Of a DNA stretch of 64,000 nucleotides, positions 34,703 to 50,885 are shown piece by piece. A program made the position numbers and the translations under genes. The stretch's first letter is position 1; every line of letters starts with the position of its first letter. Below the pieces are notes generated by a model. That model did not search any database, was not told the DNA's origin, and saw only the letters and a program-made list of their open reading frames with translations. Source of the stretch: Eledone cirrhosa (Eukaryota); contig OZ024741.1 in NCBI GenBank assembly GCA_964016885.1, positions 308,450,001 to 308,514,000 on the forward strand. The letters run 5' to 3'.

Positions 34703-34985
34703 ATGAATGAGACAAGATGAAACACACCTTTTAACATTTTCAGCTCTCAGACCGGCTGTGGTTTAGCACGATTTAATCTAATTTGCGAAACCACAGCCGG
34801 TCTGAGAACTGAAGAGGTTAAAAGATGTATGTGTCTGATCTTGTCTCGTTCATTTTCTTCCTTTGCTCCTTTCTTACTATCACTTCTGCAGGCCTACACA
34901 CTTCTTTACTCGACTCTATCATTGACGGCATTTTGTTGTTTTAAAAGCTATTCTTCGGTTGTGTTTTTTTGTCATTATTCTAGGA
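34703..34985 (+). mobile_element. PLE-type fold-back element
   Basis: Palindrome 34703-34855 centred on GCA..TGC, immediately 5' of GAAA CC..GG TC. The tail runs to (TA)n. Confidence 0.7.
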
Positions 34986-36002
34986 ATATATGTATATATA
35001 TAATATATATATATATATATATATATATATATATATATATATATATATATATATATATATATATATATATATATATATATATATATATATATATATATGT
35101 GTGTGTGTGTGTGTGTGTGTGTGTGTGTGTGTAGTCACAGGCCTCGAATTATCGTCCCCTCTCCCGCTTATTAAAATTTGCTAATCTATCTCCGGTAAAA
35201 TTTTATTTTAAGTGGTAGCATTCCTGCGACAATTCATTTTCTTTATACATTAAAAAACATTATTCATGAAAAGTACATTACAAGAAATCCCATACGTTAT
35301 AAAACAAATAGGATGGGATGAGGTTTCAATATGTAAACTAAACGACTAAGTCTGTTTATTTTTTTTTCATCAAGGGAAACAACCTCGAAAAATTACGGAT
35401 TTTTCACCCTACCTCCACTTCTTCCACTCTATTCCACCCCACCCCCCTTTATTTGTGACCCTAGAGTAATGATATAAAATCAGTAAAGATGGGATGATAT
35501 TTTATTTCTCACGATTGATTCAGCAAATATATTCACTCCTGCAATATCCACCACATATTGTATATGTGTGTGTGTGTGTGTGTACACACAGACACACACA
35601 CACACACACATATATATATATATATGTATATATATATGTATATATATATATATATATTCTGATATGAGACTCGAGTAATATTTCCTCTTCGGTGAAAATG
35701 ACTTTTATTATAGCAAGAATATGTTATTATAACAAATCGTTATAATAACAATTCCACCGTGCATAGTAAACACACCGTGAAAAGAAAGACTAATATGTAT
35801 ACATTTATAGTCGATTAACGGCGGACCATGTAATACCAGCACTATACATGTTCAAATACAAAACTGGAAGGTGTTGGCTGTACTTTTAGAAGATGGTATG
35901 GATAGGACATGTGAAAGATCATGTGAGACAGCACTTTCAGTGGTGGTAGGATCCTGTAGGTATATTTACCTGTATATATATATAATCACATACATATATA
36001 TA

Positions 36003-36195
36003 TAGGAAAAGGTATGACACCGACGGCTGAGCTCAAGCCGTTTCGACGGCGAATTCTGGACTAAATGCCGTTGAAACAGCTTGAGCTCAGCCGTCGGGGT
36101 CCTACTCGTTCCTATTACCCACTCTACTACCCTAAGTATTGAGTACTTTGGTGCGTTATGGTCCATCTGGTTCCTTACCACATTTCCTTCGTTAT
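36003..36195 (+). mobile_element. PLE-type fold-back element, family B
   Basis: GAAA CAGCT TGAGCTC AGCCG TC GGGG half-hammerhead, mirrored on the other arm. ACTC..TTGAGT tail. Flanked by (TA)n. Confidence 0.75.
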
Positions 36196-36533
36196 ATATA
36201 TATATATATATATATATATATATATATGTCTGTGTTTATATATATATATATATATATATATATATACAAATAAAGATTTAGCGAGAATCGCATTTCGGCG
36301 GGCAGGAAAAGTGAAGCGAAACGCAAAAATCAGAAATGATACTGGCAAAGTGCTCAATAGTTAAAAACCAGAGCTAAATATATATATATATATATGTCTG
36401 TGTTTTATATATATATATATATATATATATATATATATATATATATATATATATATATATATATATATATATTCATATATATATAAATTAAATTCAAATA
36501 TTAATAAAATAGATGTACTTGTGATCAATTAAA

Positions 36534-36597
36534 TTTTATTATACATATTTCAGAGGTACTTGAATCAAGTTCAATAGTACGTCCTCATCAGATAAAA
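36534..36597 (-). ncRNA. Type-I hammerhead ribozyme (family D)
   Basis: Minus strand: TTTTAT CTGATGA GGAC GTAC..GTAC CTCT GAAA TATGTA TA ATAAAA. A partial copy lies at 16968-17040. Confidence 0.75.
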
Positions 36598-36858
36598 TAA
36601 AATGATACATGACATACCCTGACATGTTAAATGGTTCAGATTTAATCACCTTGATTAAATCTTATTAATATTTATTAAATTTTATTAATATTTAAATTTA
36701 ATATTAATAACTCTGGAAAATGTCCCCTTGTAGAGTGCTTTCAATCTACTGTAAAACTCATTCTTTGATCTACTCATTGAATGTTGTTTAACTCTTTAAA
36801 ATATATATATATATATATATATATATATATATATATATATATATATATATATATATAT

Positions 36859-37262
36859 AATATGTAGTTTAGAAAGCCACAACAATGCAGATGGGAAATC
36901 TCGAGGTAAGAAGTGAGTGAGAAATAGGAGAAAAGTGAAAATGAAAATGAAAACAAAACAAAGGTAGAAGGGTTACCGTAGTGGAGATTTAATCCCAATA
37001 TTTCGGGCTGACGCCCATCAACGGGGGATAGTTCCAAAAGGGGGGGGGGGGGACAGGTTAAGCCGGAGAAAGTTGTATTGTCGTTAAAACATAGGAATGC
37101 CGTTAACCCTTCTACCTTTGTTTTGTTTTCATTTTCATTTTCACTTTTCTCCTATTTCTCACTCACTTCTTACCTCGAGATTTCCCATCTGCATTGTTGT
37201 GGCTTTCTAAACTACATATTTTACACATTTCACAATGCTTCAAGCAAACTTTAACACCCTCT
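36859..37262 (+). mobile_element. PLE-type fold-back element with a decayed hammerhead (36992-37029, minus)
   Basis: Arms 36859-36975 and 37104-37220. ATCCC CCGTTGA T GGGC GTCA GCCC GAAA TA TT GGGAT. Confidence 0.7.
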
Positions 37263-47505: not shown

Positions 47506-47606
47506 CAGGGTGTCCCAAAGAAATGTATACAAACTATAAAAGCATTCTAATAAATATTGCCTATGCAGGTAATCAAAGTGTGTATACATTTTTGGGGGAC
47601 ACCCTG
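47506..47606. mobile_element. Tc1/mariner-type MITE
   Basis: TA|CAGGGTGTCCC...GGGACACCCTG|TA. Confidence 0.85.
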
Positions 47607-48029
47607 TATAGATATATTTATTTCTCCAAAGTTACTCATACATTTTATCCTGTACTTATATAATAATAAATTATATCCTAGAAATATTGAAATATCATTC
47701 ATATATTTAATCATTTCCACACATCAGTAATCAGCATAAACAAACTATAGGGTTTCTCTCGTGCAAACCATTAATTTATCAAATCGTACATACAACTCAG
47801 TTGTATGATTTCATATATCCAATAATTCTCGTACATATGACATAGCAATCCTGGTTCTAAAACTTAAATACTTTCAACGCCATTGCTACCATTATTGTCG
47901 ACACGAATCTACTAGAAACAACTTGTAATTCTCCTTCCACTGTCACAACTACCACAAAGATAACCATTTCAACGGCCACACTACTATAACAACCTACCTA
48001 CAAATATACCCACCACTTCACCTGCGACA

Positions 48030-49535
48030 CTCACTATTACACCACTACAACCATCACCACCACCTCACCTTCGTTACTCACTATTACCACCACTACAGCC
48101 ACCGCTACCACCACCACCACCAACCACCACCACCATCATCACCACCAGCATCATCACCACCACTACAACCACCTCCATCATCACCCCCACCACCACCACC
48201 ACCACTAACACTACCAGCACCACTACCACCATCACACCACCACCACCGTCATCACCACCACTACCTCTACCACCACCATTATCGCCACCACCATCACCAT
48301 CACCATCACCACCACCATACCACCTCCATCACCACCACCTCCACCACCACCACAACCACCACCACCACCACCACCATCACCATCACCATCACCACCACCT
48401 CCACCACCACCACAACCACCACCACCACCACCACCACCACCACTACCACCACCAACACCACTACCACCACCACCACCACTACTAACGTTATCACAATAGT
48501 CGTAAATCAAACTCAATATGGTAGACATCTTTCCTTCAGCGTTCGCTGAGGACAGGTAACCTGAAACCTCCCACCTGTCTCTCACTACCCCTCCTCACCC
48601 TTTCTCCAATTTCCCGTCCTCCCACCATCCCCACTACCAAGACAGCCGTCACCACGGTGTTATTACCATATATACCGAAACCAGCCATCCCTATCACCAC
48701 TACTACCTCCTCTACTGTTTTCACTCTCCTCTTTCTTCTCCTCATCTTCTTCTCTTTTTTTTTCTTTTAATTACAACATATATTACTATTAATAGTAGTA
48801 GACCTACTACCACCACCACCACCACCACTACTACTACTACTACTGCTACTACTACTACTACTACAACTACCACCACCACCACTACCACTACTAGTACTAC
48901 CACCACCACTACTACCACCACCACCACCACCACTACCACTACTAGTACTACCACCACCACTACTACCACCACCACCACCACCACTACCACTACCACTACT
49001 ACTACTACCACTACTACTACTACTACTACTACTACTACTACCACCACCACCACCACCATCACCACTACTATTACTACCACCACCACCATCACCACTACTA
49101 CTACTACCACTACCACCACCACCACCACCACCACCATCACCACTACTATTACTACCACTACTATCACCACCACTACCACTACTACTACTACTACCACCAC
49201 CACCACCACCACCACCATCACCACTACTATTACTACCACCACTATCACCACCACTACCACTACTACTACTACTACTACCACCACCACCACCACCATCACC
49301 ACTACTATTACTACTACCACCACTATCACCACCACTACTACTACCACCACCACCACCACCACCACCACCACCATCACCACTACTATTACTACCACTACTA
49401 TCACCACCACTACCACTACTACTACTACTACCACCACCACCACCACCACCACCATCACCACTACTATTACTACCACCACTATCACCACCACTACTACTAC
49501 TACCACCACCACCACCGCCGCCACTACTACTAGTA
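48030..49535. repeat. (CAC/TAC)n arrays with higher-order repetition
   Basis: Seen directly. Confidence 0.9.
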
Positions 49536-49610
49536 CTTACACCCACCATATCCGCGCACCTTAAAGGAAAAGAATGACTTCACTTATTCTAAACAATTTA
49601 ATTTAATCTT

Positions 49611-49730
49611 ATAATTGTTTCTACTTTTGGCACAAGGCCAGCAATTACTCAGTACATTACTGGTACTTTATTTTATCGACACCGTAAGGATGAAAGGCAA
49701 AGTTGACCTCGGCGGGATTTGAACTCAGAT
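49611..49730 (-). mobile_element. Deu/Nin SINE, 5' truncated
   Basis: Reverse complement of the core and B box. Confidence 0.85.
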
Positions 49731-49989
49731 CTACAAAACCAAATTGTAAAATTATAATATAAAATGAAATTGTTTAGAACTACGAGTGAAGTCATTCTTT
49801 TCCTTTTTTCAAATATACCTAACTCTACCAAGGATTCCACACATTTTCCAACACATATATATATATATATATATATATATATATATATATATATATATAT
49901 ATATGAACACACACACACACACGCACATACATATATATATGTGTGTGGTGTGTGTGTGTGTGTGTATATATATATATGTATATATATAT

Positions 49990-50885
49990 AGGAAAATGTT
50001 TAACCCCGACGGCAGAACTCAAGCCGTTTCGACGGCTATTTCTGGACCCATATATATATATTTATAGGCTTCTGGTCTGGGAATGTTATATTACAATTAA
50101 TCGTAAGCCTGTGCTCCAAATGTTGAGCAAATTTGTAAATAATATATATATGTATGTATGTGAGTATGTGTGTATATATATATATATATATATATATATA
50201 TAGGAACCAGTAAGACCCCGACAGCTGAGCTCAAGCCGTTTCGACGGCTAATTCTGAATTAGCCGTCGAAACGGCTTGAGCTCAGCTGTCGGGGTCTTAC
50301 TGGTTCCTATTACCCACTCTACTACCTCAAGTATTGAGTACTTTGGTGCGTTATGGTCCACCTGGTTCCTTACCACATTTCCTTCGTTATATATATATAT
50401 ATATATATAACGAAGGAAGTGTGGTAAGGAACCAGGTGGACCATAACGCACCAGAGTACTCAATACTTAGGGTAGTAGAGTGGGTAATAGGAAAATGTTC
50501 TAGACCTCGACGGGGTCGAACCTGACTCTGAAAATCGCAAGGTCCTCAGATACGTCTTGATTCTACGAAGCAGATTTTCCTAGACCATAACTCACCAGAG
50601 TACACAATTCAATTTTTGGGGAGTAGAGTGGGTAATAGGAAAAGATTCAGGACCCCGACGGCTGACCTCCGGCCGTTTCGACAGCTAGATCCGAAGGTCT
50701 AGCTGAATCTTTTCATATATATATATATATATATGAAAAGATTCTTTTCATATATATATATATATATATATATATATATATATGAAAAGATTATTTTCCT
50801 ATTACCCACTCTACTACCCCAAGAATTGAATTGTGTACTCTGGTGGGTTATGGTCTACCCGGATATTTCCACACCCTATCTGAAA
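49990..50885. mobile_element. Cluster of family B fold-back modules in alternating orientation
   Basis: Repeated CCCCGACGGCTGAGCTCAAGCCGTTTCGAC and CCTATTACCCACTCTACTACC blocks on both strands. Confidence 0.8.

Follow-up and report, generated by a model that had tools for sequence, protein, structure and literature searches.

The 64,000-nucleotide (nt) stretch of Eledone cirrhosa DNA considered here (contig OZ024741.1 of assembly GCA_964016885.1, positions 308,450,001 to 308,514,000; hereafter, the window) is A+T-rich, microsatellite-rich DNA of the animal type, in which short repeats are joined head to head with inverted copies of themselves close to the remains of hammerhead ribozymes. These palindromes raise the question of what sets the point of inversion and whether the ribozyme has a part in it. 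The original prediction, made from the letters alone, held that nascent complementary DNA (cDNA) snaps back at the stem II hairpin of the ribozyme and primes its own copying, leaving two 3′ half-ribozymes and no upstream CUGANGA core on either strand. The reading preferred here, with a probability of about 0.55, is that each side of a double-strand cut primes its own cDNA and that the two cDNAs, having stopped independently, become joined through microhomology, the copying of one repeat family (family A) being stalled at stem II. Directly readable from the window are the arms, how they are oriented and where they end, as well as the one-sided tail, the flanking (TA)n, and the hammerhead layouts (Table 1).

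Hammerhead remains at the palindrome centers

Simple-repeat masking covered 9436 bases of the window, and inverted repeats were located by masked self-comparison, a plain inverted-repeat finder being overwhelmed by (TA)n. A search of the window against Rfam at the gathering threshold gave no matches, after which a custom type I hammerhead descriptor was written; at E values of up to 10, the Rfam matches listed (150 of 651) were microRNA-like hairpins on palindromes and microsatellites. The descriptor matched nine perfect-core hammerheads in the window versus none in 20 dinucleotide shuffles and, at no more than one mismatch, 16 distinct cores versus a mean of 0.33 in 6 shuffles. Because these matches far exceed those in the shuffles, the window contains many hammerhead-bearing repeat families, for which self-cleavage is the predicted function. 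Folding z-scores of single short motifs were mostly unremarkable and were not taken as proof.

Inverted repeats are present at all five places named in the original prediction. A total of 22 palindrome centers were screened for ribozyme parts, a half-motif with a stem III of at least 4 bp being expected within 30 nt of a random point in 1.3% of cases. The centers at 2350, 14861, 16722, 30524, 34416, 37040, 47556, 50398, and 54900 showed no convincing ribozyme part and stand outside the tally of 14 ribozyme-bearing inverted structures, from which 34778 was excluded as uncertain and to which 46035, 50735, and 50794 were added. In 9 of these 14 structures one arm or more ends in stem/loop II, including 2 in which both arms do; in the other 5 neither arm does. 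The pairing of two 3′ half-ribozymes, proposed as the general pattern, is found in two of them, 36058 and 50255 (in each, GAAA, a 5-bp stem III, and UC lie 13 to 15 nt from the center, and CUGANGA is on neither strand), but not in the other 12. At 50661–50705, the turn does lie 17 nt before GAAA on the minus strand, but the 3′ half is confined to one arm, the partner at 50697–50715 having neither GAAA nor stem III. The case of 34766–34782 is weak, with a 2-bp stem III on one arm (a 6.7% chance per strand) and TAAA on the other; CTGAAGA is present at 34809(+), but on the downstream side and in the wrong order, and no second copy of this palindrome was detected in the window.

The reported absence of CUGANGA throughout did not hold up, variant or decayed cores of the UUGANAA and CCGANGA types having been overlooked at 40674, 6362, 41200, and 27430; because such cores are present, the whole ribozyme layout survives there in one or both arms. 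At 40651–40695, described as another pair of half-ribozymes, the GAAA adjoining the center has no stem III-UH, and what is actually present there is a whole hammerhead layout in which the U3-A8 core is TTGAAAA (40685), stem II has 5 bp, and GCAA (40705) replaces GAAA (8 of 3000 shuffles). Its paralogue at 12946(−) has a perfect core and a stem II that differs in sequence yet still pairs, through compensated pairs. The families at 6360, 41200, and 27430, which were thought to share the half-ribozyme pattern, carry core-like 7-mers with stem I pairing at 6378(+), 6344(−), 41207(+), and 27453(−): CCGACGA at 6378(+) has one mismatch (42 of 3000 shuffles), the core at 41207(+) has three mismatches and the same 67-nt spacing, and TTGACAA at 27453(−) is a perfect U3-A8 core (3 of 3000 shuffles). 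The palindromes at 26796 and 37888, absent from the original prediction, retain the whole motif on both arms. No upstream CUGANGA with the 5′ strand of stem I was seen in any of the 15 family A arms of the window or in the first 30 letters of the loose ends of the reads, which extend to just past the putative 5′ strand of stem II. The CTGAGGA at 50549(−), tried as the missing core of family A, fails the descriptor.

Arm ends in family A

The 15 family A arms in the window, six of which have GAAA, stem III, and UH, were scored by hand for the position of their ends. All seven arms that come within 6 nt of GAAA end 6 to 22 nt before it, with a stop rate of 0.097 per nt inside this zone versus 0.009 outside; P is 4e-5 for the zone, which was defined after the fact, and 0.02 for the whole inferred stem/loop II. 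Tail-less arms of ~60 nt and tail arms of ~130 nt end in a common 17-nt zone, and the remaining eight arms end downstream, six of them 27 to 34 nt after GAAA. The peak of breakpoints in stem II that the original prediction called for is therefore found in family A; in nine other families, however, 6 of the 27 arms that enter stem II stop there, compared with 6.4 to 9.5 expected at a constant rate, the families found with the descriptor being biased toward read-through. A stop zone in stem/loop II is thus supported for family A only, and of the original proposal, the identity as 3′ parts of hammerheads is supported, as is a clustering of arm ends at stem II/loop II in this family. The stem II/loop II of family A, never seen whole, would be long and G+C-rich.

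Four sequencing runs were mapped to positions 35975–36200 at 80% likeness, yielding 24,927 raw reads of family A (X10), 21,061 contigs (X4), and 285 and 2 contigs in two other organisms; metagenome contigs, viral contigs, and phages contained no match to family A patterns. Family A is a high-copy family, and its reads fit the stop zone. Two kinds of family A 3′ end are seen in them, one marked by 3317 loose ends at the boundary between the tail-less end and (TA)n, the other by deep cover over the tail. In X10, 1269 reads depart from the reference before 36067, their plurality letters tracking the family to ~23 nt before GAAA and then turning A/T-rich (agreement 0.53), and 589 reads depart behind 36055 into mixed flanks (agreement 0.33). 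Sharp steps or ends at 36055 (2162/4214), 36066 (697/1080), and 36073 (795 loose ends, median 11 letters) in the same run coincide with AATT sites and were rejected as breakpoints. No pile of arm ends at the cleavage site was found among the family A loose ends listed. Of 125 joints, 15 were listed, and 10 of these are skips, 9 of them from 36046–36060 to 36095–36149; five “opposite strand” joints were considered as inversions, but at least four are explained by sense copies mapping to the left arm.

Some contigs (58 in X4 and 1 in X1) pass the usual stop into further family sequence. The last eight letters displayed for the X1 contig are complementary to the strand preceding GAAA, pointing to a natural family A stem II with a loop of ~33 nt. 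These contigs, together with the spread of the ends over 17 nt, argue against the view that the stop in family A is simply the 5′ end of the RNA rather than an enzyme stall. That view would fit a peak specific to family A which no family A arm in the window passes, and pseudo-long terminal repeats (pseudo-LTRs) carry internal promoter-like motifs (PMC3846280); it is nevertheless considered improbable.

Two cDNAs or one

In the preferred scheme, reverse transcription would begin at the distal of two start sites for the tail-bearing arm and at the proximal site for the tail-less arm, each cDNA heading for the 5′ end of an element RNA that is uncut. The enzyme would be likely to stall at the long G+C-rich stem II/loop II of family A, with the joins falling in the stop zone, while families with a short or A+T-rich stem II would mostly be read through; the two cDNAs would then be joined by 0 to 6 matching bases. 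The ribozyme fold would set the copying stop in one family, and no fold-back would be needed. The behavior of the purified Poseidon protein (see below) could, by analogy, account for the two kinds of arm. A further-reaching proposal, possible if on balance doubtful, is that the folded, uncut hammerhead acts noncatalytically, its long stem II being a position-specific barrier to reverse transcriptase (RT), and that the palindromes come from two cDNAs primed at two start sites bracketing the tail, at times on RNAs of different subfamilies. If so, genomic arm ends would be an in vivo footprint of the ribozyme fold, and the origin of inverted pseudo-LTRs would be settled.

In the snap-back model, there is only one cDNA, which is primed at the tail, folds over at stem II, and serves as its own template back to the pseudo-LTR end. 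Such self-copying lets the inverted arm extend no further 5′ than the tail arm, requires the arms to match at birth, and, with pairing through stem II, would retain the natural loop. The tail-less arm, however, reaches further 5′ in five of the seven scorable structures (36058, 46035, 27430, 40280, and 12449, the last with a weak core), and 40674 would be a sixth only if its 40-nt left extension is tail; arm length is level or unclear at 50255, 50794, 6362, and 26796, and 50735 and 37888 were left unscored. The arms at 46035 have no overlap at all, as is the case in 9 of the 15 joints listed (125 in all), and the solo copy at 50020 stops in the family A zone without any partner. The loose read ends in X10 (3317, 589, and 1269) likewise point to arms that stand alone.

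The arms at 36058 differ at 7 of 49 sites. Four of these differences are private (79 to 91% of the reads differ from the window letter), but the remaining three involve common family alleles, both states being frequent in the reads: the right-arm states account for 56%, 24%, and 28% of left-mapped reads, the left-arm states for 20%, 37%, and 27% of right-mapped reads, and the left-arm trio recurs in the copy at 50020. This pattern suggests that the two arms stem from two templates. Furthermore, the inferred natural loop II is absent from 36058 and 50255, so stem II pairing did not prime these two palindromes, and the turns at 6362, 26796, 37888, 50735, and 50794 lie outside stem II. Snap-back at the stem II hairpin, the mechanism originally proposed, is disfavored by the longer tail-less arms, the solo and non-overlapping arms with equal stops, the two haplotypes at 36058, and the missing loop; as a general route, it is already contradicted unless later deletions were common. 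A single hammerhead whose core alone was “corrected” into a perfect palindrome was likewise rejected, as tail-less arms occur alone and with other partners.

Several observations weigh against the two-cDNA reading or its footing. The tail arm is the longer one at 41200 and 50680. Arm pairs are mostly near-identical (125/126 at 41200, 129/134, 120/123 at 27430, 55/57, 269/274, and 52/52), and two of them share a core mutation that their paralogues lack (TAAA at 26796 and GCAA at 40674), which fits self-copying equally well, or else a pair of transcripts from a single source element. The arm asymmetry could be mimicked by gene conversion or by deletions after insertion. When the whole inferred stem/loop II is set beforehand and one arm is counted per insertion, the P value for family A becomes 0.06. 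X10 is a reduced-representation library, in which the read ends at 36055, 36066, and 36073 are unusable. The 5′ strand of the family A stem II comes from one contig and a weak 58-contig consensus (agreement 0.52), with CUGANGA and the stem I 5′ strand unseen, and most skip joints are represented by 1 to 3 contigs with sides of 21 to 25 letters, only two having raw reads with 56- to 61-letter sides. No telomerase-like RT or GIY-YIG frame tied to the ends was detected by a Pfam scan of only five non-repetitive frames, the stumps being too short to carry one, and the tails of ~77 to 107 nt are longer than the 30 to 40 nt published for Penelope-like units.

Some of these features would suit snap-back: the near-identical arms, the shared core mutations, and the longer tail arms at 41200 and 50680, along with the 1-nt spacer at 50255 and a possible retained small hairpin at 34778. 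Snap-back of cDNA has been documented for the R2 protein (PMC11371274, PMC11204384), where it also gives a head-to-head inversion. It is possible for 41200, 50680, 50255, and 34778; as the explanation of the palindromes at large, it appears unlikely. Antisense self-priming, the one published explanation found for inverted Penelope ends, was proposed for rotifer Penelopes by Arkhipova et al. (2013, PMC3846280). In this model, an antisense strand that has folded back on itself is copied, and the resulting hairpin is integrated. It yields the head-to-head order and even the longer inverted arm, a further point against the two-cDNA reading. However, it predicts arms that are identical at birth, in contrast to those of 36058, and that overlap, in contrast to those of 46035 and the skip joints. 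By itself it does not explain solo tail-less arms, and the synthesis seen in vitro is target primed on sense RNA, at both strands (PMC11167929). The balance makes antisense self-priming quite improbable for these units.

The arm asymmetry and the mixed haplotype could also have arisen after insertion, by one-sided central deletions and gene conversion in symmetric fold-backs. Long palindromes are prone to deletion, and the partner arm at 50680 fits a deletion between 3-nt repeats. Such remodeling would nevertheless need many deletions with one end fixed at the old center, and it sits poorly with asymmetric pairs whose arms are nearly identical and hence young, such as 27430 (120/123) and 40280 (25/25); it is judged very improbable. 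The window thus offers countable features that separate the models, namely the relative length of the two arms, their overlap or lack of it, and their shared or mixed subfamily membership.

Nature of the elements

The usual unit consists of (TA)n, an inverted arm, the join, a forward arm running into a tail, and a microsatellite, so that an inverted 5′-truncated copy adjoins the 5′ end head to head. The tail is on one end only, as shown for families A, B, F, and K by match to other copies, and most of the 13 units examined have a microsatellite on at least one side, target duplications being indistinguishable inside repeats. Endonuclease-bearing Penelope-like insertions are described as strongly truncated at the 5′ end, tailed at one end, adjoined by a truncated copy in inverted orientation, and located in microsatellite targets (PMC8557442, PMC3846280), and from their sequence organization the units in the window are likely to be head-to-head pairs of 5′-truncated Penelope-like retroelement ends in (TA)n. 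Since no RT or GIY-YIG frame could be linked to them, this assignment rests on noncoding anatomy; the Pfam scan found only zf-RVT, in an unrelated fragment of a long interspersed nuclear element (LINE). The elements themselves are ordinary dead stumps of a known type.

Two other classes were considered and rejected. Animal non-LTR retrozymes form head-to-tail tandem monomers with one hammerhead each, while the copies here are dispersed and head to head. Miniature inverted-repeat transposable elements (MITEs) and other fold-back DNA elements have fixed, symmetric terminal inverted repeats and a constant structure between copies, while here the centers vary between copies and only one end is tailed.

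Palindromes and other features of the window

Table 1. Arms and palindromes in the window
Feature	Positions	Strand	Description
Family A inverted tail-less arm (36058)	36002..36066	-	Outer end lies in (TA)n and inner end in putative loop II, 22 nt 5′ of GAAA; contigs continue family sequence beyond
Family A tail-bearing arm (36058)	36067..36193	+	Starts ~6 nt 5′ of GAAA (36073); GAAA, stem III, UC, stem I 3′ strand, ~80-nt tail
Family A inverted tail-less arm (50255)	50203..50256	-	Ends 14 nt 5′ of GAAA; 52/52 identical to partner
Family A tail-bearing arm (50255)	50256..50388	+	Starts 12 nt 5′ of GAAA (50268)
Family A solo tail-less arm (copy 50020)	49990..50049	-	Unpartnered and flanked on each side by (TA)n; stops 17-19 nt 5′ of GAAA
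Family A inverted arm (46035)	46036..46092	-	Ends 17 nt 5′ of GAAA; joined to a forward piece sharing none of its sequence
Family A forward piece (46035)	46090..46128	+	Tail sequence only; short microhomology at join
Family A tail-bearing arm (50680)	50581..50696	-	Single 3′ half-ribozyme; starts 17 nt 5′ of GAAA (50679)
Short partner arm (50680)	50697..50715	+	Lacks GAAA and stem III; either originally short or shortened by an internal deletion
Family A mini-palindrome	50735..50749	.	Pair of tail-less arms of 7-8 nt that turn in the 3′ region of stem I rather than in stem II
Family A 9-nt inverted arm and tail-bearing arm (50794)	50784..50884	+	Turn in stem I 3′ region, not stem II
Family D palindrome (40674)	40520..40828	.	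Right arm and spacer form a whole hammerhead layout; left arm cut inside stem II
Palindrome C (34778)	34701..34855	.	Hammerhead identity uncertain; arms 60/72 identical
Family B palindrome (6362)	6238..6487	.	Core-like 7-mer on both arms (6378+, 6344-); turn upstream of ribozyme
Family B palindrome and tail (41200)	41055..41440	.	Whole layout on the tail arm, with a decayed core at 41207 and a 60-nt stem II; inverted arm stops within stem II, 55 nt 5′ of GAAA
Family E palindrome and tail (27430)	27274..27720	.	Tail-less arm runs through spacer to U3-A8 core 27453(-); tail arm cut 56 nt 5′ of GAAA
Family F palindrome and tail (26796)	26726..26946	.	Whole motif on both arms; turn upstream of CUGAUGA
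Family K (40280)	40239..40410	.	Inverted arm cut in loop II; tail arm begins at stem I 3′ strand; arms 25/25 identical
Family L palindrome and tail (12449)	12324..12700	.	Tail-less arm has possible decayed whole motif (12409-, weak: 305/3000 shuffles); symmetry ends 4 nt 5′ of GAAA
Family P three-part direct/inverted unit (37888)	37368..38302	.	Whole motif on both long arms (37616-, 38161+)

Two family A tails stand tail to tail across a short (TA)n at 50304–50493 and together make up a near-perfect hairpin of 190 nt with below-threshold scores for microRNA precursor families. In family B, the best core (6378–6384+, 6344−, and 41207+) has C in place of U4 and a 60-nt stem II region, which could be either a family variant or decay; CTGATCA, 12 nt before GAAA, was rejected as the core of this family in favor of the better one 64 to 67 nt upstream, having no stem I pairing. 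The upstream part of a third family B copy, at 53794–53900(−), forms a long hairpin closing at GAAA (z = −3.25), and ahead of this copy stands a short inverted piece matching another B subfamily. The family E hammerhead layout at 27346–27453(−) has a 107-nt stem II region (fold of −25.6 kcal/mol), far above the 7 to 8 bp of minimal motifs. All six family F arms (51072− and 41836−; 26774− and 26819+; 59628− and 62468+) end ~3 to 21 nt upstream of CUGAUGA, a stop zone that differs from that of family A, and the join at 26796 has slipped repeats of ~20 nt. A further family K copy, at 27827(−), carries a near-whole hammerhead motif.

The 10-base motif ATYGAGTWCY occurs 13 times in the window (at 1266, 9586, 16504, 26897, 27670, 36138, 41391, 41749, 46094, 50333, 50455, 59541, and 60046) versus 0.89 expected and was found in none of 100 shuffles. 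Ten of these sites are in the tails of four otherwise unlike families (A, B, E, and F), the count being inflated by family copies; its presence in unlike families suggests a shared protein-binding or coding signal in the tail.

Other repeats include two tRNA-type short interspersed nuclear elements (SINEs) that stand head to head at 14657–15065, separated by an A+T-rich spacer and lacking a ribozyme. The window contains over a dozen other copies or pieces of this SINE, one of which (6532–6718) splits a family B tail from its arm. An open frame of 379 codons at 17234–18373(+) matches zf-RVT with an E value of 5.5e-6, just under the curated cutoff, and presumably resembles the restriction-like endonuclease end of a LINE. 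The palindromes at 16603–16842, 36859–37220, 54681–55120, 47499–47613, and 34372–34461, several of them in (TA)n, have no recognizable hammerhead and are possibly the ends of ribozyme-less Penelope clades (Naiad type) or of other elements.

Comparison with known systems

A literature search, which did not extend to most subscription papers, including the 2005–2006 Penelope reviews, turned up no paper placing inversion points on stem II or making a case for two cDNAs. The origin of the inverted ends of Penelope-like elements is still described as undefined (PMC8557442). The units in the window resemble Penelope-like insertions (Craig et al. 2021, PMC8557442; Arkhipova et al. 2013, PMC3846280) in their head-to-head arrangement, junction palindrome, tail at one end, and (TA)n hiding target duplications. 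They differ from them in that only stumps of pseudo-LTR size, with no open reading frame linked, are seen here. In the text covered, neither of these papers maps the junctions onto the ribozyme.

The ribozymes have much in common with the minimal type I hammerheads described by Cervera and de la Pena (PMC4209133), where the U3-A8 core variant was reported in Penelope elements and opposite-strand pairs 100 to 700 bp apart were noted in 2014. Shared features are the palindromic short stem III (families B, D, E, G, and H), the U3-A8 core (D and E), the opposite-strand pairs, and the prevalence of single truncated copies. Unlike those ribozymes, families B, E, and P have stem II regions of 50 to 107 nt, the best core of family B has C at position 4, and in family A stem III has 5 bp and a 5′ core was not observed.

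As in the twin priming of L1 (PMC9148063), both target ends are proposed here to serve as primers. However, L1 inversions consist of upstream, non-duplicated sequence from one RNA, while here the 3′ segment is usually present twice and, in one case, comes from two subfamilies. A further parallel is the purified Anolis Poseidon protein, which cuts and extends both strands and uses two start sites bracketing the tail on an uncut RNA template (Frangieh et al. 2024, PMC11167929); the text covered of that study neither derives inverted pairs from both products nor maps 5′ stops. Its two start sites fit the two kinds of family A 3′ end, and its target is likewise AT-rich. The window also suggests that a ribozyme fold is able to fix where copying stops.

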